Shown here piece by piece: positions 7,575 to 57,314 of a stretch of DNA of 64,000 nucleotides. Position numbers and translations under genes: made by a program. Location of the stretch: NCBI GenBank assembly GCA_016870325.1, contig VGBV01000001.1:3349-67348 (forward strand), in the 5' to 3' direction. The first letter of the stretch is position 1. Each line of letters starts with the position of its first letter. The notes under the pieces are model-generated. The model saw nothing but the letters and a program-made list of their open reading frames with translations. It had not been told where the DNA came from and did no database searches. This stretch comes from Actinomycetota bacterium (lineage in GTDB: Bacteria > Actinomycetota > Thermoleophilia > Solirubrobacterales > 70-9).

Positions 7575-7709
7575 CTCGGCTTCTACCCCGGCCGCGCGCC
7601 AGGCCGACGATCGGTAGCGGCCTTACCACGAGCGAATCCTGCACCCTGAGACCACTCCCGATCTCAGCACCCCGGTCGAGGCCGTCACGGCCGCCGACCT
7701 GGTGGAGAC

Positions 7710-7955
7710 GCCGAGCGGGTGCAGCTGACGATCCCCGAGGAGTGCTGGCGCCCCGCCCTCTCGCGCTCGCTGGCGCCGAAGATCACCGCCCTGCACCGCG
7801 ACCTCGACGAGTACCTGGGCTACTGCAACCACGACCGCGCCCATACCGGGCGCCTGGCGACGGGCAGGGTGCCGGCGGATGTCGTCTTCGGCGCCCGCAA
7901 GATGGGGAGCGTGGGATGAGGCCGAGTTGTTGGGAGAACTTCGGGAATAGGACGG
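7710..7955 (+). mobile_element. IS remnant copy A: 3' end of a DDE (rve) transposase gene plus the IS terminus
   Basis: Encodes ERVQLTIPEECWRPALS..YCNHDRAHTGRLATGRVPADVVFGARKMGSVG, then TGAGGCCGAGTTGTTGGGAGAACTTCGGGAATAGGACGG. By eye it differs at 4 positions from 30944-31189 (reverse strand). The catalytic part is absent. Confidence 0.8.
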
Positions 7956-15589: not shown

Positions 15590-16372
15590 GTACCGGTCGT
15601 CGGTGCCGCGGCGGGGGCGCCGATAGCGTGCGCTCGGAGATGACCGAGCACCTGCTCGTGGCGGCGGTCGTGCCGCCGGTGCCGGCGCCGCCGAGCTCGA
15701 TCGCGCTCAGCACGCTCTGCCGGTCGAGCGGTGTCTGGTCGAGGTCCGGCCCCACCGTGCCCTCGGTCCCGGCCTCCGAGAAGGTGTGACAGGAGCCGCG
15801 TTGCCTGTGAACAGCTCGCGCCCCTGCTCGGCCTCGGGCGAGAGCGGCTTCTCGGCGACCGCGGCCGGCGCCACGTCGGGGCGGGTCGGGAGCATCCGGT
15901 CGAGCGCGATGAAGGCGCCGGGCAGCAGCACCGCGACCGTGACCGCGAGGCTCGCGAGCCCGAGCTGGCGCGGGTCGACCAGGAAGGGCTCCGAGTCGTT
16001 CGCCCGCCGGCGACCGCGCACGGACTGGATCACGTTGTAGGCGAACACGAGCTGGCCCAGCGCCATCAGCAGCACGAACGGGACCGACAGCAGGGTCAGC
16101 GTGTCGTGGGCCTCGGGCAGGACCGAGAAGCGGTGCGGGCCCCCGTTCAGTCCCTGGATGTACCAGATGATCGCGTTGCCGTAGCCGCCGATCATCGTCA
16201 TCCACAGGTGCCACCAGCCCAACCGCCGCGAGTACCTGGGTTTCTTGATCAGCTCCGGCAGCAAGGCGTAGGCGGCGCCGAAGATGACGGCGCCGATGAG
16301 CAGCGCCATGTGTGGAAGTGGCCGACGATCCAGAGCGTGTTGTGGATGTCGACGTTGAGCGCGTGCCGGCGG
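15590..16372 (-). pseudogene. haem-copper oxidase subunit I C-terminal remnant with a decayed cytochrome c tail
   Basis: Minus-strand reading gives LNVDIHNTLWIVGHFHMALLIGAVIFG (helix-X His ligands) plus further TM segments. It is followed by ELFTGN and, in another frame, GSCHTFSEAGTEGTVGPDLD (first Cys of CxxCH lost). Homology stops at the IS-end fragment at 16363. Confidence 0.7.
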
Positions 16373-16447
16373 ATATCGTCTTCGGCGCCCGCAAGATGGG
16401 GAGCGTGGGATGAGGCCGAGTTGTTGGGGCAACTCGGGAATAGGACG
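16363..16447 (+). mobile_element. IS remnant copy B: terminal ~85 bp of the same IS end
   Basis: GTGCCGGCGGATATCGTCTTCGGCGCCCGCAAGATGGGGAGCGTGGGATGAGGCCGAGTTGTTGGGGCAACTCGGGAATAGGACG. By eye there are 3-4 differences from 7870-7955. Confidence 0.75.
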
Positions 16448-16523
16448 CTCTAGCCAGAAAAAATCCGACCGCGCGGGCCGAGATTACGCAGGGACGTTCG
16501 ACCGCGAACGGCCTCCCGGAGCC

Positions 16524-17894
16524 TCAGTAGCTGGTCGAGGTGTGGACCTTCTTGCGCTCGGACTCGTGCATGCCGCCCTTCTTGGCGAGGACCTCGCAGG
16601 CCTCGGCGAGGTCGTCGCCGAGCTTCTCGGCGAGCGCGTAGGGGAGCGTCAGCTTGACCAGCGCGCGCATCAGCTTCACGTCCTGGGCGTTGGGGGGCAG
16701 GTGATAGGCCGGGACCATCCAGCCGCGCACGGCCGCGAGCTGCGAGGCGAGGTCGAACTCGTCGTAGGGGTGATCCCCCTTTAGCCTCCAGGCGACCAGC
16801 GGCAGCTGCTCGCCCGAGCCGAGCTCCTCGAACTCCCCGATCGCCATGACCCGCTCCGCCAGCGCATCGCGGTTCGTCTGCATCACCTTCATCAGGTACT
16901 CGTAGCCTGAGCGGCCGAAGCGGATGAAGTTGTAGTACTGGGCCAGCACCATCGCCGAGCCCGTCGAGAAGTTGAGCGTGAAGGTGGCGTCGCGCTTGCC
17001 GAGGTAGTCCTCGTAGAAGACCAGGTCTTCCGGCAGGCAGTCCTTGTCGCGGAAGATGAGCCAGCCGATCCCCGGGAAGACGAGTCCGAACTTGTGGCCC
17101 GAGGCGTTGATCGAGCGCACCTGCTCGAGCCGGAAGTCCCATTCGCTGTCGGGATGGAGGAAGGGCCAGACGAACGCGCCGCTGGCGCCGTCCACGTGCA
17201 GGGGGATGTCCCAGCCGTGCTTCTCCTTCGTCTCCACCAGCAGCTTGTTGATGCCGACCACGTCGTCGGCGTGGCCGGTGAAGGTGGTGCCGACCACGGC
17301 GGCCACGCCGATCGTGTGCTCGTCCAGATGCTGCTCCACGTCCTCGGGGCCGATCACGAGCTTGTCCTCCTGCAGCGGCACGATCCGCGGCTCGACGTCG
17401 AAGTAGCGGCAGAACTTCTCCCAGACGACGTGCACGTCGCCGCCGAAGATCAGGTTCGGCTTCTCTGCGCCCTTCTTCTCGGCCTCGCGGCGCTGCCGCC
17501 ACTTCCACTTCATCGCCAGCGCGCCGAGCATGATCGCCTCGCTCGACCCCTGCGTGCGCGCGCCCGTCGTCTCGTCGGGAGCGTTGAAGAGGTTGGCGAG
17601 CATGCGGATGCAGCGCTGCTCGATCTCGGCCGTCTGCGGGTACTCGGCGTGGTCGATGAAGTTCCGGTGCAGGTTCTCGGCGATCAGTGCCCGCACGTCG
17701 GGCCCCATCCAGGTGGTGACGAAGGTCGCGAGGTTGCGCTCCGGCTCGCTGTCGAGCAGCAGCTCCTCCTCGATCAGCAGGCGCGCGTCCTGCGGGGCCA
17801 TCCCCTCGAGCGGGATCTCGTCGTCGGGCGCCGCCTCGGCGAGGAAGGCCCCGCGATGCATGCTCGGCGGGAACTCGGGCATCCGGTCCGTCAT
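16524..17894 (-). CDS. gad: glutamate decarboxylase (PLP-dependent, group II)
   Basis: 456 aa from ATG 17894. NLATFVTTWM, EYPQTAEIEQRCI, INASGHKFGLVFPGIGW (PLP Lys) and the C-terminal tail HTSTSY are typical of GadA/B-type enzymes. Confidence 0.92.
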   Translation of the reverse strand: MTDRMPEFPPSMHRGAFLAEAAPDDEIPLEGMAPQDARLLIEEELLLDSEPERNLATFVTTWMGPDVRALIAENLHRNFIDHAEYPQTAEIEQRCIRMLANLFNAPDETTGARTQGSSEAIMLGALAMKWKWRQRREAEKKGAEKPNLIFGGDVHVVWEKFCRYFDVEPRIVPLQEDKLVIGPEDVEQHLDEHTIGVAAVVGTTFTGHADDVVGINKLLVETKEKHGWDIPLHVDGASGAFVWPFLHPDSEWDFRLEQVRSINASGHKFGLVFPGIGWLIFRDKDCLPEDLVFYEDYLGKRDATFTLNFSTGSAMVLAQYYNFIRFGRSGYEYLMKVMQTNRDALAERVMAIGEFEELGSGEQLPLVAWRLKGDHPYDEFDLASQLAAVRGWMVPAYHLPPNAQDVKLMRALVKLTLPYALAEKLGDDLAEACEVLAKKGGMHESERKKVHTSTSY

Positions 17895-17973
17895 GGATAA
17901 GCACCCTAACCCGCTCGCCGTCCCGGCACCGCCCCGGTTAGGTGGTTTACTGCCGGGACCTATTCGGCGAGAG
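17895..17973. promoter_or_regulatory. divergent gad / ion-channel control region with a 7-bp inverted repeat
   Basis: A 79-bp spacer lies between the two start codons. It contains CCTAACC (17905-17911) and GGTTAGG (17936-17942). No consensus promoter hexamers were recognised. Confidence 0.3.
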
Positions 17974-19056
17974 TTGAACATCAGGAGAGGAAGCGGTGCC
18001 GCCTGTTCGCTCGCGCTGGTCGCGATGCTCGTCGCCGCCGCTCCCGCCCACGCGCAGGACGAGCTGAGCCCGGCCGAGACGGCCAAGGCCAAGCAGGCCG
18101 AGGAGGCCGCCAAGGCCGAGGAGGCCGCCAAGGCCGAGGAGAAGGCGCCGGCGCCGAAGCCCGACGTGGTCCGCATCGGGGCGCTGATCAACGACATCCA
18201 GCAGCTCGACCTGCAGTCCCACTCCTACAACGTCGACATGTACATCTGGTTCAAGTGGAAGAACCCGGAGATCGACCCTGCGTCGAGCTTCGAGTTCCTC
18301 AACGCCTTCGAGCTCTGGGGCCACATCCTCACGACCACGTACTCCGAGCCGCAGGTGCTTCCCGACGGCAGCCTCTACCAGGTGATCCGCAACCAGGGCA
18401 AGTTCAACGCCAAGCTGCCGCTGGAGGACTACCCGTACGACACCCAGGACCTGCAGGTGGCGCTGGAGGATGCGAACGCCGACTCCAGGCAGCTCGTCTT
18501 CGTTCCCGACGGCCCCGACCCGGTCGCGATCAGCCAGGACCTGGTGATTCCCGGCTACGAGATCGACGAGCCGACGCTGACGATCTCGGACAACCGCTAC
18601 GACACCAACTTCGGGGATCCCCGCTTCGACCGCGTCACCTACTCGCGCGCCGTCTTCGATCTGCCGGTGACCCGCCCGGAGGGGACCTACTCGCTGAAGC
18701 TGATGTTGCCGCTGCTGCTGGTGGCGCTGACCGCGTCGCTGGCGCTGCTGGTGCACCCGCGCTACGTCGAGGGCCGGATCGGGATCGGGATCACCGCGCT
18801 GCTCACCCTGGTCGCGCTTCAGATCACCAGCAACTCGAGCCTGCCGGAGGTGGACTACCTGATCCTGCTCGACAAGATCTACATCGCCTCCTACGCGTTC
18901 GTGGTGCTGACGATGGTGCTGATCGTGCGCAACTCCTGGGTCGACGCCGAGGGCGACTGGATCAAGGCCAAGGCGCTGGATCGCAAGAGCCTGCTCTGGC
19001 TGATGGTCGCCTACGTGCTGGTGATCGTCCTCCTCTTCATCCAGTCGCTGGCCTGA
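17974..19056 (+). CDS. prokaryotic pentameric ligand-gated ion channel (Cys-loop receptor superfamily, GLIC/ELIC-like)
   Basis: Signal peptide MNIRRGSGAACSLALVAMLVAAAPAHA/QDE (TTG start, uncertain). Ectodomain has IGALINDIQQLDLQSHSYNVDMYIWFKW and the Cys-loop-equivalent YPYDTQDLQVALE. M1 is RPEGTYSLKLMLPLLLV, M2 is RIGIGITALLTLVALQITSNSSLPEVDY, and M3 and M4 are also present. Confidence 0.85.
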   Translation: MNIRRGSGAACSLALVAMLVAAAPAHAQDELSPAETAKAKQAEEAAKAEEAAKAEEKAPAPKPDVVRIGALINDIQQLDLQSHSYNVDMYIWFKWKNPEIDPASSFEFLNAFELWGHILTTTYSEPQVLPDGSLYQVIRNQGKFNAKLPLEDYPYDTQDLQVALEDANADSRQLVFVPDGPDPVAISQDLVIPGYEIDEPTLTISDNRYDTNFGDPRFDRVTYSRAVFDLPVTRPEGTYSLKLMLPLLLVALTASLALLVHPRYVEGRIGIGITALLTLVALQITSNSSLPEVDYLILLDKIYIASYAFVVLTMVLIVRNSWVDAEGDWIKAKALDRKSLLWLMVAYVLVIVLLFIQSLA

Positions 19057-19089
19057 GGCCCCTGGCTCCTGGCACTACCCTGGGCGCCG

Positions 19090-20130
19090 ATGCCTGGGCA
19101 GCCAGAGAGCACGCCGGCCGACGTGGACGAGGTCCTCGACCCCGAGCCCGGACCGCTCGAGCCGCGCCGATCAGCGCCGCCCCGGCAGCGCTCGGCGATC
19201 GAGAGCGCCGCGGACGGCGTCGTCGACCTCGGGATTCGGGTGGCGACGCCCTTCGTTCGCTTCGGCTGGAACACGGCCCGAGGGATCGGCAGGCGCCTCG
19301 GCGTCAGTGACGCTGTCGAGCGCCAAGTGGGACGCGCGCTGGACAGCGACGCCGCGGCGCGCACGACCGAGCGCGTGCTCGAGACCCCGGCCGCCAACCA
19401 GGTCTGGGACACGGTGCTGGAGAGCGAGCAGGCGCAGAAGCTCGTCGAGCGCGTAGCCGAGGCGCCCGAGGTGCGCTCGGCGATCACCTCCCAGGGCCTC
19501 GGCCTGCTCGAGGACGTGCGCCAGACGGCGCGGCGCGCCGCGCGGCGCGCCGACGACGAGCTCGAGCGGCTGGTCCGCAAGGCGCTGCGCCGTCCGGCGC
19601 GGGGACAGCGCCCGGTTTTCGCCGGCGGCGCAACTCGTTTGCTCGCGATCGGCATGGACGCGGCGATCCTTTCCGGAATCCTGATGCTGATCGCTGCCGT
19701 GGTCTCGGCGCTGCTGAACGCCGTCTTCTCCCTCGGGGGCGACAACACCACTGCGGCGATCGCCTTCGGCGCGCTCGCCTGGTGGCTGTCGGCGGGCGTC
19801 TATCTGGGGATTTTCTGGATTCTCGCCGAGCGCACGCCGGGTATGACCTTCATGGCGCTGCGGATCTCGACCATCCGCGGCGCGCGCGTGGGGCCGCGGC
19901 AGGACTTGAAGCGCCTGATCGGCTTTGCGCTGGCTCTGATCCCGCTCGGGCTCGGATTCCTCGGGATTCTCACGAACGAGCGCCGTCGCGGCTGGCACGA
20001 TCGCTTCGCGGACACCGAGGTCCTCTACGCCGACCCCGAGCTGGACTCCGGCCTGCCCGGCTGGGTGCTTCAGCCGGGGACCCGGCCAGCGCCTGGGCCG
20101 GCGCGCTGGTCGGGCCATGGTGACGGCTGA
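19090..20130 (+). CDS. RDD-family membrane protein with a long soluble N-terminal region
   Basis: The C-terminal half has 3 hydrophobic segments flanked by ATRLLAIGMDAAI and RRGWHDRFADTEV (RDD signature). Confidence 0.75.
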   Translation: MPGQPESTPADVDEVLDPEPGPLEPRRSAPPRQRSAIESAADGVVDLGIRVATPFVRFGWNTARGIGRRLGVSDAVERQVGRALDSDAAARTTERVLETPAANQVWDTVLESEQAQKLVERVAEAPEVRSAITSQGLGLLEDVRQTARRAARRADDELERLVRKALRRPARGQRPVFAGGATRLLAIGMDAAILSGILMLIAAVVSALLNAVFSLGGDNTTAAIAFGALAWWLSAGVYLGIFWILAERTPGMTFMALRISTIRGARVGPRQDLKRLIGFALALIPLGLGFLGILTNERRRGWHDRFADTEVLYADPELDSGLPGWVLQPGTRPAPGPARWSGHGDG

Positions 20131-20749
20131 CGAGGCGGGGGGCGCGGCCCCTCGTGCGGTTCCCGTCACGCGTGAGCTGATGCGCGGCGCCGCGGAGGCG
20201 GCCGCGGAGGGCTTCCTCGACAACGAGATATGGGTCTGGATGCTGCCGCGTGAGTGGCAGCGCAGGCGCCTGCTGCCGCGCCACTACCGCTGGATGATCC
20301 GCAGCGTCTACATGCCGCGCTCCGCGGCCTGGACGACCCCCGACGCGGCGGGGACGGCGCTCTGGTTCCCGCCGGGGACGCTGTGGCTGCGGGGGTTCGA
20401 GCGCCTGGCCGAGGCCGCCTCGCTGCTGCCGGAGGGGATCGACTGCTTCCGCCGAGCGCTGCGCTGGGAGGAGCTCATCTCCGAACACCACCCGCGCGAG
20501 CGCTACTGGTACCTGCAGACGCTGTCGGTGCGCCCCTCCGCCCAGCGCGGCGGCATCGGCACCGCGCTGATCCGGCCCGGGCTCGATCGTGCCGACGAGG
20601 CGGGCGTCAGCACCTACCTCGAGACCCAGCGCTTCTCGAACGTCCCCTTCTACGAGCGCTTCGGCTTCGAGCTGACCGGCGAGGTCAGCCTGCCCGACTC
20701 CCCGCCGGTCTGGCTGATGTCGCGACCGCCCGGCGGCGGTGGCGCCTGA
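20117..20749 (+). CDS. GNAT-family N-acetyltransferase
   Basis: Acetyl-CoA motif LSVRPSAQRGGIGTALI, plus NVPFYERFGFE. Overlaps the RDD gene by 14 nt. Confidence 0.8.
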   Translation: MVTADEAGGAAPRAVPVTRELMRGAAEAAAEGFLDNEIWVWMLPREWQRRRLLPRHYRWMIRSVYMPRSAAWTTPDAAGTALWFPPGTLWLRGFERLAEAASLLPEGIDCFRRALRWEELISEHHPRERYWYLQTLSVRPSAQRGGIGTALIRPGLDRADEAGVSTYLETQRFSNVPFYERFGFELTGEVSLPDSPPVWLMSRPPGGGGA

Positions 20750-20817
20750 CGCTTACGTTGCGTTAGGCCCCGAGGTAAATGCTCGCGGGAGCCACGCCAA
20801 CCTCCGAAGGAGAGATC

Positions 20818-21315
20818 ATGCTGCGTCTGCTCACCATCTCAGCCGTGTCCGCCGCGCTCCTGATCGCCGGCTGCGGGGAAGACGACTCCTCCGGCTCCGG
20901 CGACACGGCGGCGGCGACCGAGGCGGCCGCGCCCGCGACGACAACCGAGAAGGCGGCGGCGACCGGAACCGAGATCAAGCTCGCCGGCTCGGATTTCGGC
21001 CAGATCCTCTTTGACGGAGAAGACCAGGCGATCTACCTGTTCGACAAGGAGAGCGGGCCGACGAGCGAGTGCTACGGCGAGTGCGCCGTGGCTTGGCCGC
21101 CCGTGCTGACCGAGGGCGACCCGCAGGCCGGCGCCGGCGCCAAAGCCGGCCTGCTGGGGACGACCGAGCGCGACGACGGCACTACGCAGGTGACCTACAA
21201 CGGCCACCCGCTCTACTACTACGTGGACGACCCGCCGGGCGAGGTCCTCTGCCACAACGTGGACGAGTTCGGCGGGCTCTGGCTGGTCGTGGACGGCGCC
21301 GGGAACGCGGTCTAG
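20818..21315 (+). CDS. secreted lipoprotein with tandem Yx(FWY)xxD repeats (COG4315-like)
   Basis: ATG follows GAAGGAGAG. Lipobox LLIAGC. Also YGECAVAWPP and HPLYYYVDD. Confidence 0.8.
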   Translation: MLRLLTISAVSAALLIAGCGEDDSSGSGDTAAATEAAAPATTTEKAAATGTEIKLAGSDFGQILFDGEDQAIYLFDKESGPTSECYGECAVAWPPVLTEGDPQAGAGAKAGLLGTTERDDGTTQVTYNGHPLYYYVDDPPGEVLCHNVDEFGGLWLVVDGAGNAV

Positions 21316-21327
21316 CCGCGAGCTGAG

Positions 21328-21630
21328 CTACGCGTCGTCGGCGGGGTCGAGCGCTTCCCGCGCCTCGGCCCAGCTGTCCGGCGGCACGCGCAGCGCGATG
21401 TCGCCGCGCCCGAACTCGTCCAGCGGCCAGTCCGAGGTCAGCACCGCCTTCACGCCGGCCTCGGCGAGCTGCTGGCGCCAGGCGCGGGCGGCGTCGAGCT
21501 CGCCGAAGTCCTCGACCACGGCCCAGTCGTCGAAGCGCGGGTCCGAGACGTGCAGCTCGGCGGCGCCGTCGATCGCGCGGGGACCGGCGACGCCCCTGGC
21601 GACGCGCCCGAACCCGTCGCGCAAACCCAC
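21328..21630 (-). CDS. hypothetical protein (DUF2007-like?)
   Basis: GTG ORF of 100 aa with acidic composition unlike a shadow ORF. Family call is tentative. Confidence 0.5.
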   Translation of the reverse strand: MGLRDGFGRVARGVAGPRAIDGAAELHVSDPRFDDWAVVEDFGELDAARAWRQQLAEAGVKAVLTSDWPLDEFGRGDIALRVPPDSWAEAREALDPADDA

Positions 21631-21637
21631 GGCGGAG

Positions 21638-22096
21638 CTAGTCGCTGAGCTCGACGCGCTCGATCAACTGGGGCTCGGAGGGACGGTCGCCGGGACCGGT
21701 CTCGGTGCTCTCGATCGCGTCCACGTTCTCCATGCCCTCGGTGACCTCGCCGAAGACGGTGTGCTTGCCGTCGAGCCAGTCGGCGGCCGGCGCCGTGACG
21801 ATGAAGAACTGAGAGCCGTTGGTGTTGGGCCCGGCGTTGGCCATCGCCAGCGCGCCGCGCACGACCTTGTGGTCGTTGAACTCGTCCTCGAAGGTGTAGC
21901 CCGGACCGCCGGTGCCCGTTCCCTCCGGGCAGCCGCCCTGGATCATGAAGTCGGGGATTACGCGGTGGAAGCTGAGCCCGTCGTAGAAGCCGTCGCCCGC
22001 GAGCTTGCGGAAGTTCTCGACGGTCTTGGGCGCGTCCTCGTCGAAGAACTCGACGGTGATCGGTCCTGCGTTCGTGTGAAACGTGGCCTTTGACAT
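21638..22096 (-). CDS. ppiB: peptidyl-prolyl cis-trans isomerase (cyclophilin type)
   Basis: [47 protein letters not shown]. Confidence 0.93.
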
Positions 22097-30943: not shown

Positions 30944-31440
30944 CCGTCCTATTCCCGAAGTTCTCCCAACAACTCGGCCTCATCCCACGCTCCCCATCTT
31001 GCGGGCGCCGAAGACGACATCCGCCGGCACCCTGCCCGTCGCCAGGCGCCCGGTATGGGCGCGATCGTGGTTGCAGTAGCCCAGGTACTCGTCGAGGTCG
31101 CGGTGCAGGGCGGTGATCTTCGGCGAGCGCGAGCGCGAGAGGGCGGGGCGCCAGCACTCCTCGGGGATCGTCAGCTGCACCCGCTCGGCGCAGCCGTTTG
31201 AGTTCGGCCGCCCGGCCTTGATCTTGCGCTGGGTGGCGCCCTCGGCCTCGACCGCCTGACCGAAGAGCCTCGAGCGGAACTCCGAGCCGTTGTCCAGGCA
31301 TGAAAGTCCCGGCGGTCCCGCCGCGAGGATCACGGTCCTCCGGGCAACGGGGCAGATAACGGGAGAGCAGGCAGGGCAGGCCGCTTTGCGCGATGGGCCG
31401 CGAGCCCGACCTTTCGGTGGCCGCCCCTGCGACCCGCCCG
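30944..31440 (-). mobile_element. IS remnant copy C: longest copy, DDE (rve) transposase C-terminal half plus the IS terminus
   Basis: The terminus CCGTCCTATTCCCGAAG starts immediately after the tal TAG. Encodes LDNGSEFRSRLFGQAVEAEGATQRKIKAGRPNSNGCAERVQLTIPEECW..GSVG. Upstream of about 31350 the frame decays. Confidence 0.8.
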
Positions 31441-31516
31441 GGTGTGCCGAGAGCACGAATCCGTCTGTGTCGTTCGCCCGCCGGTTCTCCACCGCAACCC
31501 GGCAAAGGAGGACCAA

Positions 31517-31690
31517 GTGGGAGATATCGGCCTGGACGTCCACCGCGACTTCTGCGAGGTCGCGATTGCCGAGGAGGGCGGGGTGAGAGCCGCGGGTCGG
31601 ATCGAGAGCCGTCCGGAGGCGGTCGAGCTCTTCGTCCAGAGCCTCGCAGCCGATGACCAGGTGGTGCTCGAGGCGACCTTCGGCGCGGCC
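31517..31690 (+). mobile_element. IS110-family transposase N-terminal fragment
   Basis: RBS AAAGGAGGA followed by GTG 31517. Reads VGDIGLDVHRDFCEVAIAEEGGVRAAGRIESRPEAVELFVQSLAADDQVVLEAT (DEDD N-terminal motif), then homology is lost. Confidence 0.65.
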
Positions 31691-31766
31691 GGGCGCCGCT
31701 GGCTCGCCGACGTCGAGCTGCCTGCAGGCCTCCGAGATGTTGCCCTTCTCCTCGGCGGGGCTCAGC

Positions 31767-31922
31767 GACTGGCCCGGCGGCGGCGTGATCGGGGTCCACG
31801 GCACCGACGAGCCGGGGCTGATCCCCGGCCGCGTCTCGCACGGCTGCGTGCGGCTGCGGAACGGTGACGTCAACCGCCTGCGGCGGCTGATGGGCCTCGG
31901 CACCCCGATCCTGATCCGCTGA
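31767..31922 (+). pseudogene. second L,D-transpeptidase (YkuD) C-terminal fragment
   Basis: DWPGGGVIGVHGTDEPGLIPGRVSHGCVRLRNGDVNRLRRLMGLGTPILIR, with the catalytic HGT and SHGC motifs. No N-terminal part is present. Confidence 0.6.
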
Positions 31923-40348: not shown

Positions 40349-40602
40349 TCAGGCGCGGATGTCCGCGGTCGCGAGCGTGGTCCCGGCGGTCTTGGCCGAG
40401 TCCTTGGAGCCGGTGCCGCGGGTGTCCGCGGAGTTGGCGTCGTCGCTGTTGCCCTTGGTCGCCCTGGTGGTCCCGGCCGTCTTGGCCGAGTCCTTCGAGC
40501 CCGTGCCCTTGGTGCGGGCCGAGTCGGCGCTGTCATCGGTGTCGGCGGTCGCGGCGGTGGTCCCGGCCGTCTTGGCCGAGTCCTTGGAGCCCGTCCCCTG
40601 GG
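40349..40602. repeat. 90-bp coding tandem repeat (about 2.7 copies)
   Basis: The core GTGGTCCCGGC(C/G)GTCTTGGCCGAGTCCTT(G/C)GAGCC recurs at 40377, 40467 and 40557. Confidence 0.8.
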
Positions 40603-41071
40603 TGGCCAGGGTGCGGCCGTCGTCGTCTACCTCGCCGGTGCCTGTGTTGGTGCCGGCGGACTTCTCCGACTTGGCGGTGCCGGTGCCGGCGGTGTTGGTC
40701 GAGGGCTCGTCGCCGTCGCTGGGGCTCTCAGAGCCCACGTCGCTGGCGGAGTCGTCCTCCTTGGCCGCGTCGCCGTCGCCGCCACCCTCACCGTCGTCGC
40801 CGCCACCCTCACCGTTGTCGTCGCCGCTCTCGCCTTCCTCGCTCTCGGACTCGGCCGAGCGCACGGCCTGGTCGTCGGTGCCGCCCTGGGCGGTGTTGGC
40901 CCAGATCAGAGGCACGGACATCAGGAACAGCGCCGCGAGCAGCAGCGTCACGGACTTGCGCAGCGGGGAGGGCCCGCCGCCGGCGAGCTCGTTGCCCTCC
41001 GCGAGATTCAGGAACGCGCGCGACGCTCCACCGGGGTCACGAGCTCCCTTCGGATGCTCTTGGTCGGACAT
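40349..41071 (-). CDS. membrane-anchored acidic Ser/Thr/Asp/Gly-rich repeat protein
   Basis: ATG at 41071. One TM segment (VTLLLAALFLMSVPLIWA). An acidic low-complexity region is followed by 2.7 copies of a 30-aa repeat starting GTGSKDSAKTAGTT. Confidence 0.65.
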   Translation of the reverse strand: MSDQEHPKGARDPGGASRAFLNLAEGNELAGGGPSPLRKSVTLLLAALFLMSVPLIWANTAQGGTDDQAVRSAESESEEGESGDDNGEGGGDDGEGGGDGDAAKEDDSASDVGSESPSDGDEPSTNTAGTGTAKSEKSAGTNTGTGEVDDDGRTLATQGTGSKDSAKTAGTTAATADTDDSADSARTKGTGSKDSAKTAGTTRATKGNSDDANSADTRGTGSKDSAKTAGTTLATADIRA

Positions 41072-45833: not shown

Positions 45834-45919
45834 TGCCGCGGCTGTGGCTGATCGCGACGGCGATCATCGTCATCTGCTGTCTCGCGTCGATGGTGATCGC
45901 CGTCACCAAGCTGACGTAG
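45833..45919 (+). CDS. 28-aa hydrophobic micropeptide
   Basis: MPRLWLIATAIIVICCLASMVIAVTKLT. The ATG overlaps the upstream TGA (TGATG) and is preceded by GAGGAGGAG. Confidence 0.55.
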   Translation: MPRLWLIATAIIVICCLASMVIAVTKLT

Positions 45920-46149
45920 CACGGTCCGAGGCGGTCTCAGTCCAAGCGGCGATGGCCGCGCAGGCCGCCGCCGCCGACAGGCCGTGCCCCTGATGCACGG
46001 CCCGAGGCGGTCTCAGTCCAAGCGGCGATGGCCGCGCAGGCCGCCGCCGACAGGCCGTGCCCCTGATGCACGGGGCGAGGCGGTCTCAGTCCAAGCGGCG
46101 ATGGCCGCGCAGGCCGCCGCCGCCGACAGGCCGTGCCCCTGATGCACGG
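45919..46149. repeat. tandem array of 76/73/76-bp units with embedded hairpins
   Basis: Units start at 45919, 45995 and 46068, with a fourth GCACGG at 46144. The units differ by one GCC triplet and a few substitutions. A hairpin GGCCGTGC-ccctgat-GCACGGCC lies at 45980-46002. Confidence 0.9.
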
Positions 46150-46198
46150 GGCGATAGGATCGCGGCGCAATCGACCTGCAGGCGGACCAGGAGACTGA

Positions 46199-48761: not shown

Positions 48762-50129
48762 GTGAGCGAGATCGACCGCAGCTGGCTGCGCGAGCTGATG
48801 AGCCGCGAGCTGGCGAGCTTCCGCGAGTCCAACCCGCGCTCGTTCGAGATCTTCGAGCGCTCCCGAACGTCGCTGCTGGACGGGGTGCCGATGAACTGGA
48901 TGGTGCGGTGGCCGGGCGAGTTCCCGGTCTACGTAGCCGAGGCCTCGGGTGCGCACTTCAGCGACGTCGACGGCCATACCTACGTCGATCTCTGCCTCGG
49001 CGACACCGGCGCGATGGCCGGCCACAGCCCCGAGCCGGTCGTCCGCACGCTCTCCGAGCAGGCGGCGAAGGGGATCACGACGATGCTGCCGGCCGAGGAC
49101 GCCGGCTGGGTGGGCGAGGAGATGGGGCGGCGCTTCGGCCTGCCGCTGTGGCAGTTCTCGCTGACCGCGACCGACGCGAACCGCTGGGCGATCCGCCTCT
49201 GCCGCCAGATCACCGGCCGCCCCAAGATCCTGGTCCAGAACTGGTGCTACCACGGCTCGGTCGACGAGACCTTCACCCAGCTGGCCGAGGACGGGACGAC
49301 GGTGCTGCCGCGCGAGGGCAACATCGGCCCGCCCGTGGACCCCGCCGAGACGACCCGCGTGGTCGAGATCAACGACACAGACGCGCTCGAGCGCGAGCTC
49401 GCCCACGGCGACGTCGCCTGCGTCCTGGTCGAGCCCGCGCTGACCAACATCGGCATCGTGCTGCCGGATCCCGGCTACCACGACGCCCTGCGCGAGCTGA
49501 CCCGGAGGCACGGAACGCTGCTGATCATCGACGAGACACACACGATCTGCGCGGGCCCGGGCGGCTACACCAAGGCCCACGGCCTGCAGCCGGACCTGCT
49601 GACGATCGGCAAGACGATCGGGGGAGGCATCCCGATCGGCGCCTACGGCTTCACCACCGAGTTGGCCGAACGGATCGGCGACGCGATCGAGGAGGAGCTC
49701 TCGGACGTCGGCGGCATCGGCGGCACTCTCGCCGGCAACCCGCTGTCGCTGGCGGCCGCCCGGGCCTGCCTCGGCGAGGTGCTGACCGACGACGCCTTCG
49801 AGCGCATGATCGCGCTCGGCGAGCGCTTCACCGACGGCGTGCAGTCGGTGATCGACGAGCACGGCGCCCCCTGGCACGTGACCCGCCTCGGCTGCCGCGC
49901 CGAGTACCTGTTCAGCCCCGAGGTCGCCCGCGACGGCGCGCAGGCGGCGGCCTCGGGCGACGCCGAGCTCGACCGCTACATGCACCTGCACGCGCTCAAC
50001 CGCGGCATCCTGCTCACCCCCTTCCACAACATGGCGCTGATGAGCCCGGCCACGACCGAGGCCGACGTCGACCGTCACACCGAGATCTTCCGCGAGGGCG
50101 TCGGCGAACTCGTCGCGGGACCCGGCTAG
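48762..50129 (+). CDS. class-III PLP aminotransferase (glutamate-1-semialdehyde aminomutase-like)
   Basis: RBS GCAGGAGGA followed by GTG. LIIDETHT, TIGKTIGGGIP (PLP Lys). Confidence 0.85.
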   Translation: MSEIDRSWLRELMSRELASFRESNPRSFEIFERSRTSLLDGVPMNWMVRWPGEFPVYVAEASGAHFSDVDGHTYVDLCLGDTGAMAGHSPEPVVRTLSEQAAKGITTMLPAEDAGWVGEEMGRRFGLPLWQFSLTATDANRWAIRLCRQITGRPKILVQNWCYHGSVDETFTQLAEDGTTVLPREGNIGPPVDPAETTRVVEINDTDALERELAHGDVACVLVEPALTNIGIVLPDPGYHDALRELTRRHGTLLIIDETHTICAGPGGYTKAHGLQPDLLTIGKTIGGGIPIGAYGFTTELAERIGDAIEEELSDVGGIGGTLAGNPLSLAAARACLGEVLTDDAFERMIALGERFTDGVQSVIDEHGAPWHVTRLGCRAEYLFSPEVARDGAQAAASGDAELDRYMHLHALNRGILLTPFHNMALMSPATTEADVDRHTEIFREGVGELVAGPG

Positions 50130-54351: not shown

Positions 54352-55917
54352 CTAGCGCGGCGCGGCGCCGTCGTTCAGGCGCGCGAACATCTTGCGCTGG
54401 GACTTGTAGAGGCCGGGGAACTCGGCGTAGAGGCGCTCGTAGGCGGCGTGGTTGGCGGGATCGGGCTTGAAGGTGCGCTCGACTCGGACCAGCTCGCGGA
54501 CCTGGTCGCGCTCGATCGCGCCCAGGATCAGTCCCGCGAAGAGGCCGGCGCCGCGGAGGTTGGTGTGAAGCGGCTCGGCGACCCGCTCGATCGTGCGGTC
54601 CATGACGTCGGCGTGGATCTGGCACCAGAGGTCGGCGACGGCGCCGCCGCCGAAGATGCGCAGATGGTCGAGACGGCCGCCCGCGAATCCCTCGACCGCG
54701 TCGTGCAGCCAGCGGCTGTTGTAGGCGACGCCCTCGAGCACGGCGCGAATCAGGTCGGCGTTGGTGGTCTCGACGGAGAGGTTGTGCCAGCCGCCGCGGG
54801 CTCCGCGGTCGTCCACGGGGGAGCGCTCGCCGGCGATCCAGGGCGTGAAGATGACGCCGCCGCTCCCCGCCGGCGCGTCCGCGGCGTCCGCGATCAGGTC
54901 CCCGAACGACCTCGGTTCGCGGGCGGCCAGCGCCTCGCGCGCCCAGAGCAGGGCGAGGCCCGCGGCCTCGTGGTTGTTGACGACCAGGTAGCTCCGAGAG
55001 TCGAGCCCCGGGACGGTCGCGATCGAGTGCTGGATGTCGGTCTTCTTTCGCGTGGTCACCAGCGAGATCCACGAGGTGGTCCCGATCGGCATGTGGGGCT
55101 CGCCCTCCCGGATCGAGCCGGCGCCGAGAGCCGCCGAGTGCAGGTCGGGGATCCCGGTCGTCACCTGAACCTCGGGGCCCAGGCCGAGCGCCGAGGCGAC
55201 CTCGGGGCGGAGCGGGCCGATCACCGACCCCGTCGCCTGCAGCGGCGCCAACTTCTCGGCCGGCAGACCGGTGCGGCGAAGCAGGCGGCGGTCGTAGGCG
55301 AGGCGGTCGAGGTGGCGGTTGTCGGTGAGCCACGCGCCGATCATCGAGGCGGGGGTGGCGCTCGCCCTGCCCGTCAGGCGCAGCGTCAGGTAGTCGACCG
55401 GCTCCAGGTACCAGCGGGCGCGGGCGGCGATCCCGGGCATCTCGCGCTCGATCAGCAGCATGTGGGCGAGCGGGTCCCCGCCCTGGTTGGAGGGGATGCC
55501 CGCGGTGAGCCTGATCCAGAGCGCCAGGGCGCGCGGCGAGTAGCCCATCAGCGGTCCCCCGACGACCTCGCGCGCGTGGGGGCCGCCGCGGGTGTCGAGC
55601 CACATCACGCAGGGCCCGACGGGCTCTCCGCCCTCGTCGGCGGGGACCGTGCTCGCCCACTGGCTGGTGCAGGAGACCGCGGCCACGCGGCTCGCGTCGA
55701 CGCTCGCGAGCGCCGAGCGCGACAGCTCCAGCACCAGCTCCCACCAAGCGGACGCGTCCTGGACGGCGCCGCCGCCCTCGAGGCGCTCGGTCTGCAGCGG
55801 CCGCTCCTCGAACGAGTGCACCTCGCCCGCCATCGAGACGACGCCCAGCTTCAGGGCGCTGCTGCCCAGATCGACGGCGAGGACCAGCTCGTCCGGCGAG
55901 CGCCCCCGGCCCGTCAA
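54352..55917 (-). CDS. FGGY-family carbohydrate kinase
   Basis: LAVDLGSSALKLG, TTSWIS and GGGA near the C-terminus. TTG 55917 overlaps the upstream TGA (TTGA). Confidence 0.85.
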   Translation of the reverse strand: MTGRGRSPDELVLAVDLGSSALKLGVVSMAGEVHSFEERPLQTERLEGGGAVQDASAWWELVLELSRSALASVDASRVAAVSCTSQWASTVPADEGGEPVGPCVMWLDTRGGPHAREVVGGPLMGYSPRALALWIRLTAGIPSNQGGDPLAHMLLIEREMPGIAARARWYLEPVDYLTLRLTGRASATPASMIGAWLTDNRHLDRLAYDRRLLRRTGLPAEKLAPLQATGSVIGPLRPEVASALGLGPEVQVTTGIPDLHSAALGAGSIREGEPHMPIGTTSWISLVTTRKKTDIQHSIATVPGLDSRSYLVVNNHEAAGLALLWAREALAAREPRSFGDLIADAADAPAGSGGVIFTPWIAGERSPVDDRGARGGWHNLSVETTNADLIRAVLEGVAYNSRWLHDAVEGFAGGRLDHLRIFGGGAVADLWCQIHADVMDRTIERVAEPLHTNLRGAGLFAGLILGAIERDQVRELVRVERTFKPDPANHAAYERLYAEFPGLYKSQRKMFARLNDGAAPR

Positions 55918-57314
55918 CTCTCGGGAACTGCCTGTTGCGCGTCGAGCAGCCGCTCCATCACCGAGCGGATCATGCCTTCCGCGTCGGGGTTGAGCCCACC
56001 GGGGACGCCCCCGTAGAGCGCCGCCGACTCGGCCGGCTCGTCACCGCGCTCGCGCGCATAGGCGACGGCGTCGGCGAGGTCGGCCGCGAAGGCGTCGGTG
56101 ACGCCGGGCTGGAGCTGGGGGCGGGTGACCGCGAAGTGCAGGGCGTTCGGGTACTGGAGCCCGTTGAAGCGCCAGCCCCGCCGCTTCATCTCGTCGTTGA
56201 CGTGGTAGATGTCGAACTCGTCGGAGGTGAAGGCGAAGAGGAAGGTCGGCTCGCCCAGGATGCGCAGCTCGGGGTGGGAGCGGACCGCGTCCCGCATCGC
56301 CGCCGAGGCCTCGAAGATCCCCCTCGCGTAGCCGCGGTATCCCGCGCGGCCGATCGTCACCAGCGAGGCCCAGGTCGCCGCCAGCAGCCCGTCAGAGCGC
56401 GAGCCCTCGATCCCCGGCGAGAAGTACTTGCCGCCGCTCCAGTCGGGCTGGAAGAAGTAGGCGTGGTTGCGAAGCTCGCGATCGCGGAAGAGCACCGTCG
56501 AGCTGCCCTTGAGCCCGTAGCCGTACTTGTGGGTGTCGGCGGAGATGCTGGTGACGCCGGGCAGGCGGAAGTCGAACGGGGGCACGTTGTAGCCCAGCTC
56601 CTCGCCGAAGGGCAGGATGAAGCCCCCCAGGCAGCCGTCCACGTGCATGCCGGCGCCGCGCTCTAGCGCCAGCTCCGCCAGCTCGGAGATCGGGTCGATC
56701 GTGCCGTAGCCGTAGTTGCCGGCCGAGCCCACGATCGCGACCGTGCTCTCGTCGATCAGCTCGGCCACGTCGGCCGGACGGACCAGCGTCGTCTCGGGAT
56801 CGACCTCGACCCGCCGCAGCTCGATCCCGTAGAGGTGGCAGGCCTTGTCGAAGGCGGGATGGGCGGTCTCGGGCTTGACGATGTTGGGACGGTCGATGCC
56901 GCGGCACTCGCGCCCGTGCTCGCGGTAGACCAGCATCGCCTGGCCGATCGAGCCGGTCCCGCCCGAGGTGACCATCCCCGCCGGGGTCGCGTCGGTGACC
57001 TCGCCGGCGTTGAAGAGGTCGAGCACCATGGCGATGATCTCGCCCTCGAAGCGGGTGGCGCTGGGGCACATGTCGCGCTGCAAGGCGTTCTGGTGGGCGA
57101 ACAGCCCGAACGCCTCCTTGAGGAAGGCGTAGTGGTCGCGGTCGCCGCAGTACATCGTCCCCGAGCAGCGCCCGTCCTCCCAGACCCCGTCCTCCTCGCT
57201 CGCCATCTGGCGCAGCTCGCCGAGCAGCTCCTCGCCCGAGCGGCCCCGCTCGGGCAGCTCCCGCGCGACCCCGAACCGCTCCGAGTAGGGATGGGAGTCG
57301 AACAGGTCGGCCAT
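55914..57314 (-). CDS. PLP-dependent group II decarboxylase/lyase, sphingosine-1-phosphate-lyase-like
   Basis: GMVTSGGTGSI, HVDGCLGGFILPF, SISADTHKYGYGLKGSSTVLFRD (PLP Lys). Confidence 0.8.
   Translation of the reverse strand: MADLFDSHPYSERFGVARELPERGRSGEELLGELRQMASEEDGVWEDGRCSGTMYCGDRDHYAFLKEAFGLFAHQNALQRDMCPSATRFEGEIIAMVLDLFNAGEVTDATPAGMVTSGGTGSIGQAMLVYREHGRECRGIDRPNIVKPETAHPAFDKACHLYGIELRRVEVDPETTLVRPADVAELIDESTVAIVGSAGNYGYGTIDPISELAELALERGAGMHVDGCLGGFILPFGEELGYNVPPFDFRLPGVTSISADTHKYGYGLKGSSTVLFRDRELRNHAYFFQPDWSGGKYFSPGIEGSRSDGLLAATWASLVTIGRAGYRGYARGIFEASAAMRDAVRSHPELRILGEPTFLFAFTSDEFDIYHVNDEMKRRGWRFNGLQYPNALHFAVTRPQLQPGVTDAFAADLADAVAYARERGDEPAESAALYGGVPGGLNPDAEGMIRSVMERLLDAQQAVPES

Follow-up and report, generated by a model that had tools for sequence, protein, structure and literature searches.

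A glutamate decarboxylase gene adjoining a divergent pentameric ligand-gated ion channel gene: a neighbourhood confined to one clade of Solirubrobacterales

We analysed a stretch of 64,000 nucleotides from the genome of a soil actinobacterium (Solirubrobacterales; contig VGBV01000001.1, positions 3,349 to 67,348), referred to below as the window, in which a gene for glutamate decarboxylase (GAD) and a gene for a subunit of a ligand-gated ion channel of the pentameric type (pLGIC) lie back to back. The gad gene (16524-17894, minus strand, 456 aa) and the channel gene (17974-19056, plus strand, 360 aa, TTG start) are separated by a divergent spacer of 79 bp (17895-17973). A gene for an RDD-family membrane protein (19090-20130, plus strand, 346 aa) begins 33 nt past the channel stop codon and overlaps by 14 nt a gene for a GNAT acetyltransferase (20117-20749, plus strand, 210 aa); a possible fourth gene of the string (20779-21315, plus strand) encodes a secreted Lipoprotein_15-repeat protein (PF03640, 75.7 bits). 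These open reading frames (ORFs) and their coordinates, including the 14-nt overlap, had been given for gad, the 360-aa ORF, RDD and GNAT in the initial annotation, and agree with both the ORF map and the raw sequence. Among the related loci, which are cited by L and P numbers, the RDD gene lies directly 3' of the channel gene in L001, L081-L086 and L171, and the lipoprotein gene occupies the equivalent place in L081, L083, L085, L171 and the P0015 contig. The locus is made up of two separate units: gad alone, and the same-strand string pLGIC-RDD-GNAT, possibly with the lipoprotein gene.

The gad product scored 552.9 bits against the NCBIfam equivalog model TIGR01788 (cut-off 380.4) and 203 bits against PF00282 of Pfam, and its translation contains the pyridoxal phosphate (PLP)-lysine motif NASGHKFG. 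By these matches the gene encodes a bona fide glutamate decarboxylase of the group II PLP family, as the initial annotation had held. No signal peptide was seen in the translation, and the enzyme is therefore presumably cytoplasmic. Further along the window lie a second PLP-dependent decarboxylase gene (55914-57314, minus strand; PF00282, 74.7 bits), which overlaps by 4 nt the start of a downstream FGGY-family kinase gene (54352-55917, minus strand), and a class-III aminotransferase gene (48762-50129, plus strand) about 30 kb from gad.

The 360-aa protein has the layout of a pLGIC: a signal peptide (residues 1-27), a low-complexity helical linker (approximately residues 33-57), a beta-sandwich ectodomain and the membrane segments M1-M4. 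The signal peptide (AAAPAHA/QDE) with its Ala/Glu/Lys-rich linker, the ectodomain signature YPYDTQDLQVALE and the four hydrophobic segments, all of which had been noticed earlier, were confirmed in the translation. In an AlphaFold2 monomer model (pLDDT 77), beta-strands over residues 64-233 are followed by four helices that coincide with the hydrophobic segments (residues 238-259, 265-289, 293-325 and 329-359), the loop between M3 and M4 being only 3 residues long. When this model was compared with the PDB by Foldseek, 50 of the 50 matches listed were pLGIC chains (best E 2e-19). Sequence searches pointed the same way, as phmmer against the PDB matched residues 60-354 to GLIC chains (E 1e-11 to 1e-16) and also retrieved ELIC (1e-11), and hhalign of the channel against the ELIC family returned a probability of 99.6%. 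The Pro-loop YPYDTQ (residues 153-158) fits the motif [FY]P[FY]D, and P154, D156 and Q158 are invariant both within the channel family and when ELIC, GLIC and related channels are aligned with it. Profile and fold comparisons had been proposed as a check on the pLGIC assignment: the predicted fold and the PDB sequence matches are those of a pLGIC, whereas the curated cut-offs were not reached (PF02931, 18.8 bits against 26; PF02932, no match; TIGR00860, 52.6 against 280; NF033918, 44.4 against 500). We attribute the latter to the family being too divergent for these models; most of the channel homologues have no precomputed Pfam match. Because the PDB matches extend over both domains and the predicted fold is that of a pLGIC, the 360-aa protein is a genuine, divergent member of the pLGICs.

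A search for homologues of the channel yielded 669 sequences, mostly unnamed, and a relative is encoded in 193 species-representative genomes. These consist of members from Solirubrobacterales and other Thermoleophilia and of an alphaproteobacterial branch at 41-53% identity; the family of the channel, which is uncharacterised, is thus one of Thermoleophilia and Alphaproteobacteria. The TTG start of the window channel is supported by L171, where the orthologue (81% identical) has an ATG that aligns with it. The public gene call on a near-identical contig (L081) places the start 23 codons later, at the cost of the signal peptide. The linker contains an 18-bp perfect tandem repeat of 2.6 copies (18095-18141, plus strand, detected by TRF), which encodes AAKAEE units; the L081 channel has one such unit fewer, the sole difference between the two proteins, and the repeat number therefore varies between near-identical strains.

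Plasmid sequences gave only distant matches to the channel, from Azospirillum and Streptomyces (25-32% identity). On plasmid pAB510b of Azospirillum sp. B510 (L173, 4779-10744) a distant pLGIC-like "hypothetical protein" heads a series of same-strand genes with sensory annotations, namely CheW, a protein with a four-helix-bundle domain of the methyl-accepting chemotaxis protein type and a mechanosensitive ion channel family protein. No decarboxylase was visible in the sole annotated plasmid locus examined. The arrangement on pAB510b suggests a different, sensory setting for a bacterial pLGIC.

The pore helix M2 (residues 265-289; 18766-18840, plus strand) reads V-E(-2')-G-R(0')-IGIGI-T(6')-AL-L(9')... 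In the alignment with GLIC, E266 falls on GLIC E222 (-2'), T274 on position 6' and L277 on position 9', and both E266 and the stretch ITALLTLVAL are invariant across 31 homologues. A Glu at -2', a polar residue at 6' and a hydrophobic one at 9' form the pattern of cation-selective members. With its GLIC-like -2' Glu, 6' Thr and 9' Leu, the channel is therefore most likely cation-selective, and most likely a homopentamer.

In ELIC, roles at the agonist site have been ascribed to Glu77, Glu131, Phe133, Tyr174/175, Phe187/188, Tyr38 and Asn103 (PMC3119659). BLAST, MAFFT and hhalign agreed in placing Glu131 on E165, Tyr174/175 on Y209, Phe187/188 on Y223 and Tyr38 on Y90 of the window channel, and these four residues are invariant or at least 90% conserved across the aligned Solirubrobacterales homologues, with gad nearby or not. 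Phe133 is replaced by A167 (Ala, Ser or Thr in the family) and Asn103 by V137. As for GLIC, its His235 (11') corresponds to Leu279, and E165 stands at the position of its Ile131; only the -2' Glu is shared. Since ELIC residues of three loops are kept (the Glu of loop B, the two aromatics of loop C and the Tyr of loop D), a small primary amine is the probable ligand of the extracytoplasmic domain; the predicted pocket is ELIC-like and would suit a small cationic amine as ligand throughout the family. Sequence by itself does not decide between gating by gamma-aminobutyric acid (GABA) and gating by protons. When channels with and without a linked gad were compared column by column, they could be told apart at I302 in M3 only and nowhere in the ectodomain; a gad-specific change in the binding domain was accordingly rejected.

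The companions of the channel were as initially described, an RDD and a GNAT gene downstream on its strand. The RDD protein matched PF06271 with 59.8 bits (cut-off 24.1) over residues 180-307, and its N-terminal part of about 170 aa has no Pfam match. The GNAT protein matched PF00583 with 39.6 bits; a role as a GABA or polyamine acetyltransferase found no support, its closest solved homologue being puromycin N-acetyltransferase (7k09, E 8.5e-26). RDD genes with a similarly long N-terminus are found near gad in four loci without a pLGIC gene (L088, 4014-4946, minus strand; L089, 195-1181, minus; L095, 2765-4210, plus; L109, 928-2280, minus), which suggests that the association of gad with RDD is independent of the channel. 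The sole RDD protein that has been characterised, a distant member, is a Na+(Li+,K+)/H+ antiporter (PMC5996927). The earlier remark that the window lacks a GadC-type antiporter also stood: no amino-acid permease or antiporter appeared among the gene calls within 8 kb on either side or among the tested window ORFs rich in transmembrane (TM) segments, which proved to be cytochrome bd subunits, a TgpA-like protein and unknowns.

The spacer between gad and the channel gene does contain the palindrome reported initially, CCTAACC (17905-17911) and GGTTAGG (17936-17942), but it is not conserved in L082, L083 and L171. A stronger palindrome with 9-bp arms, GTCCCGGCA and TGCCGGGAC (17920-17928 and 17951-17959), was equalled in 33 of 2000 shuffles and is likewise not conserved in these three loci. 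Neither was therefore retained as a candidate shared operator. The 7-bp and 9-bp repeats are interleaved in the order A1-B1-A2-B2, which if transcribed would be an H-type pseudoknot arrangement; in view of the lack of conservation in relatives, this is probably due to chance. No Rfam match was obtained at E<=1 over 16300-21700.

Alignment of the spacers of four lineages left only two conserved blocks. The one on the gad side, TAGGGT/TAGGCT, is a -10-like box of the TANNNT type (minus strand, 17908-17903) that ends 8 nt before the gad ATG, a distance which implies a nearly leaderless gad mRNA. The one on the channel side, GGTGGTTTACT (17941-17951, consensus GGTGRTTWACT), is located upstream of the channel start, at a distance of about 25-35 nt; a box resembling it, GTGRTTGAAT, precedes the channel gene in L002 and L004, which have no gad, and the box thus belongs to the channel. 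Just 3' of the gad stop codon a hairpin followed by a T-run (16465-16481, minus strand) is the only terminator-like site found in 16300-21700, and suggests that gad is monocistronic. With two separate -10-type boxes, gad and the channel string look independently transcribed. A scan for consensus sigma-70 promoters gave no match, so that we infer these promoters from conservation only.

The pairing was followed through three collections, sets a to c: (a) 80 species-representative genomes encoding a channel of 41-72% identity, in which gad was sought within 8 kb; (b) the closest metagenomic relatives of the channel locus; and (c) the 80 nearest relatives of gad from JGI metagenomes (68-79% identity), 49 of which have an upstream flank of at least 1.2 kb, enough to show a channel gene. 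Not one of the 80 genomes of set a had gad within 8 kb of the channel, and none of the 80 gad relatives of set c, including the 49 with sufficient flank, had a channel gene beside it. RDD and GNAT genes stood behind the channel in a single locus of set a, L001, and a hidden Markov model of the RDD subfamily detected no such gene adjoining the other 78 pLGIC loci. The commonest neighbour in set c (18 of 80 loci) was a gene for a YrhK-like multi-TM protein of about 240 aa, situated about 160 bp upstream of gad on the same strand (e.g., L099, 572-1312, and L095, 4241-4909).

The pairing was found in five distinct Solirubrobacterales lineages, whose channels are 74-98% identical. The whole arrangement, with gad divergent from pLGIC-RDD-GNAT, is kept in L081, which is of the same strain as the window, and in L171 (81%), L082 (79%) and L083 (76%); the P0015 contig (74%) has the same gene order, but an unannotated 245-aa ORF takes the position of RDD. 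The string pLGIC-RDD(-GNAT) without gad is present in L084 (74%), L086 (72%) and L085 (71%), and also in L001. Conversely, in L088 and L089, the two closest gad relatives, gad is directly divergent with the RDD gene at a distance of 111 bp; the G6PD-PPIase synteny of the channel locus is there, but the channel and GNAT genes are missing. Adjacency, which had been put forward as a test of the module, hence recurs in four further lineages, all of one shallow clade, and is absent from both surveys outside it.

Many Solirubrobacterales loci hold the channel gene between a 5'-3' exonuclease gene and the PPIase/G6PD genes, which makes the channel the long-established occupant of this site. The occurrence of RDD and GNAT, followed by that of gad, is restricted to nested sub-clades. 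In a neighbour-joining tree of the channels, a clade without gad (L001, P0017 and P0013) is nested among the gad-linked ones. The simplest history would be one gain of gad and at least one later loss, while the L088/L089 lineage would have lost the channel; inside the clade, each of the two genes has disappeared from loci that retained its partner.

The arrangement had initially been regarded as not previously described. This was incorrect: in 2011 a gene annotated as glutamate decarboxylase was noted beside that of ELIC in the same operon, and GABA was proposed as the likely natural ligand of this channel, which is opened by GABA and other primary amines (Zimmermann & Dutzler, PLoS Biol, PMC3119659). 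We found no other relevant literature on pLGIC gene neighbourhoods; Jaiteh et al. 2016 mention neither decarboxylases nor operons. The ELIC-family loci of Dickeya, Vibrio, Marinomonas and Saccharobesus (L167-L170; identity to ELIC down to 44%) share a tight, co-directional operon, Pyridoxal_deC - pLGIC - an unknown protein of 429-517 aa without Pfam match - MFS, with one extra gene between decarboxylase and channel in Saccharobesus. The best model for the ELIC-linked decarboxylases was that of histidine decarboxylase (190-230 bits, cut-off 305); on the GAD model they scored only 21-38 bits, and local identity to the window gad was 28%. On these scores the published "glutamate decarboxylase" label of the ELIC neighbour is doubtful.

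In both systems a pLGIC gene lies immediately beside that of a group II PLP amino-acid decarboxylase, and the channels share cation-type pore features and the equivalents of Glu131, Tyr175, Phe188 and Tyr38 (E165, Y209, Y223 and Y90). The differences are numerous, however. The two channels, members of different families, share only 23% identity, and Phe133 and Asn103 of ELIC are not conserved here; the ELIC genes are co-directional and overlap or nearly abut, whereas gad is divergent from the channel; the companions are RDD and GNAT in place of the unknown protein, with no MFS gene; and a true GAD stands where ELIC has an enzyme nearest to the histidine decarboxylase model. Moreover, the ELIC operon is kept from Dickeya to Saccharobesus, and the present pairing is confined to one sub-clade. 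The window locus is thus an independent, non-orthologous variant of the known decarboxylase-pLGIC theme, with far weaker conservation than that of ELIC. With GLIC the channel shares full-length similarity (E ~1e-11), the fold, a short M3-M4 loop, the absence of Cys-loop cysteines, the -2' Glu, a polar 6' and a hydrophobic 9'. It differs in overall sequence (about 20% identity), in lacking about 25 residues ahead of loop A and carrying an extra N-terminal helix of low complexity, in the Leu at the position of GLIC His235 (11'), and at GLIC Arg77 and Ile131, where ELIC and the window channel family have Glu. The likeness to the GadB/GadC system is limited to the genuine TIGR01788-family GAD: no Glu/GABA antiporter lies beside gad or among the scanned TM-rich ORFs of the window, and it is the YrhK-like protein, not GadC, that is most often encoded beside gad in its 80 nearest relatives.

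The far side of gad bears traces of insertion sequence (IS) activity. The 85-bp IS-end remnant reported earlier (16363-16447) is real, a solo element whose sequence agrees at 95% with the ends of two IS copies elsewhere in the window, and it lies between a COX1-like gene fragment and the gad terminator. The two copies (7709-7955 and 31190-30944; 247 bp, 98% identical) are in opposite orientation, and each includes the 3' end of a transposase/integrase ORF, with an rve_3 match for 30980-31903 (minus strand). Being inverted and about 23 kb apart, the two enclose the gad-pLGIC region in full and could bring about its inversion. The remnant is missing from L082 and L083 and thus post-dates the pairing. 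The COX1-like fragment (15707-16309, minus strand, reaching approximately 16432) matched only the last COX1 helices (PF00115 positions 348-433), followed by an extra TM segment and a cytochrome-c-like CxxCH stretch that runs on in another frame; it too is missing from L082 and L083, where exo53 abuts gad. Elsewhere, self-comparison of the window revealed tandem direct-repeat arrays with units of about 75-90 bp at 45919-46154 and 40354-40625 (94-98% and 78-81% identity).

How the two units relate to each other can be read in several ways. We see about an even chance that they are independent units, neighbours in one clade, and that the channel is an amine-type cation channel regardless of gad. 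The juxtaposition would then be a lineage-restricted neighbourhood and not an obligate two-part module, and any functional link, for instance exported GABA as one agonist, would be an accessory feature of the sub-clade that does not define the channel family. As the pairing is confined to one shallow clade in which either partner has been lost, it is not presentable as a conserved module. Several observations nevertheless weigh against this separation of the two units. The gad-pLGIC junction and its spacer length of 79-86 bp are kept in five of the five gad-linked lineages, and the far flank of gad varies between them (L082 and L083 have exo53 there, the window IS/COX1 debris, L171 a VTT-domain gene and P0015 a GGDEF gene), which hints at selection for the junction. 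The non-orthologous ELIC family resides in a conserved PLP-decarboxylase operon in four gammaproteobacterial genera; with the window locus, this makes a decarboxylase adjoining a pLGIC a recurring theme. At the amine-contacting loop-B Glu the pocket is ELIC-like and not GLIC-like, Glu77 of ELIC loop A maps ambiguously (E107 by MAFFT, E113 by hhalign), and the promoters assigned to the two units are inferred.

A closer coupling is possible but doubtful, in which the pair would act as an amine module of the ELIC kind. GAD would make GABA in the cytoplasm; the GABA would leave through an exporter, possibly the RDD protein, or would come from neighbouring cells or roots, and on binding to the channel ectodomain would open the cation pore and so change the membrane potential. 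In the sub-clade the pair would then both produce and sense GABA, and would be to actinobacteria what the decarboxylase operon is to ELIC bearers. Such a module would be consistent with a pairing kept in five lineages at constant spacer length as the outer gad flank changes, with an enzyme that is a true GAD, with the conserved E165, Y209, Y223 and Y90 and a conserved Glu available for loop A whichever alignment is used (E107 or E113), and with the conserved ELIC operon, whose channel responds to GABA and primary amines (PMC3119659). It agrees poorly with the 0/80 and 0/80 of the reciprocal context surveys, with the independent loss of each partner inside the clade and with the identical pocket of the gad-less orthologues. 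In addition, the genes are divergent, not co-transcribed and without a conserved shared operator; no amino-acid permease was found among the window ORFs tested, and GAD is presumably cytoplasmic, the binding domain lying outside the cell; and Phe133 and Asn103 of ELIC are replaced by Ala/Ser/Thr and Val. The ELIC-linked enzyme, being nearest to the histidine decarboxylase model and not to GAD, makes of this precedent an argument for "an amine" and not for GABA specifically.

Classical GAD systems are acid-resistance systems, and a GLIC-like proton-gated channel could be imagined to join a proton-consuming GAD in sensing and countering acid stress. GLIC is indeed among the best full-length PDB sequence matches, and the -2' Glu is common to both channels. 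We consider this very unlikely, since His235 (11') of GLIC is Leu279 here, the orthosteric pocket has the ELIC-type Glu and aromatics that GLIC lacks, no GadC-type antiporter was found within 8 kb or among the tested TM-rich window ORFs, and the context is conserved no better than under the GABA model; nor would acid tolerance obviously benefit if a cation channel opened at low external pH. The proposal that the functional partner of gad is the RDD protein, in transport or ion homeostasis, with the pLGIC an older resident between them, also seems unlikely. It would account for the long-N-terminus RDD genes next to or near gad without a pLGIC in L088, L089, L095 and L109, and the sole characterised RDD protein is an Na+(Li+,K+)/H+ antiporter (PMC5996927), but the function of the family is known from this one distant member only. 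Furthermore, only 4 of the 80 gad loci have RDD, the YrhK-like protein being the commonest neighbour (18 of 80), and RDD also stands behind the pLGIC in genomes without gad.

The concept of a decarboxylase-linked channel has a precedent, and the comparative evidence for a coupling of gad to the channel is weak. To our knowledge, the sole earlier genomic hint to what prokaryotic pLGICs bind and do in the cell was the decarboxylase link of ELIC. The window locus is a second, independent case of a decarboxylase beside a pLGIC, with a different channel family and an unambiguous GAD; a channel that combines several of the amine-contacting residues of ELIC with a true GAD next door is a concrete candidate for a native GABA-gated bacterial channel. 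Tentatively, the GAD of the sub-clade and a cation channel with an ELIC-like pocket might form a working "GABAergic" unit, in which GABA from the cell itself or from its neighbours gates the channel and so sets the membrane potential. If this were true, and taken with the ELIC operon, prokaryotic pLGICs would in general be receptors for amines that a linked enzyme produces by decarboxylation, and an old question, that of the purpose of bacterial pLGICs, would be answered.

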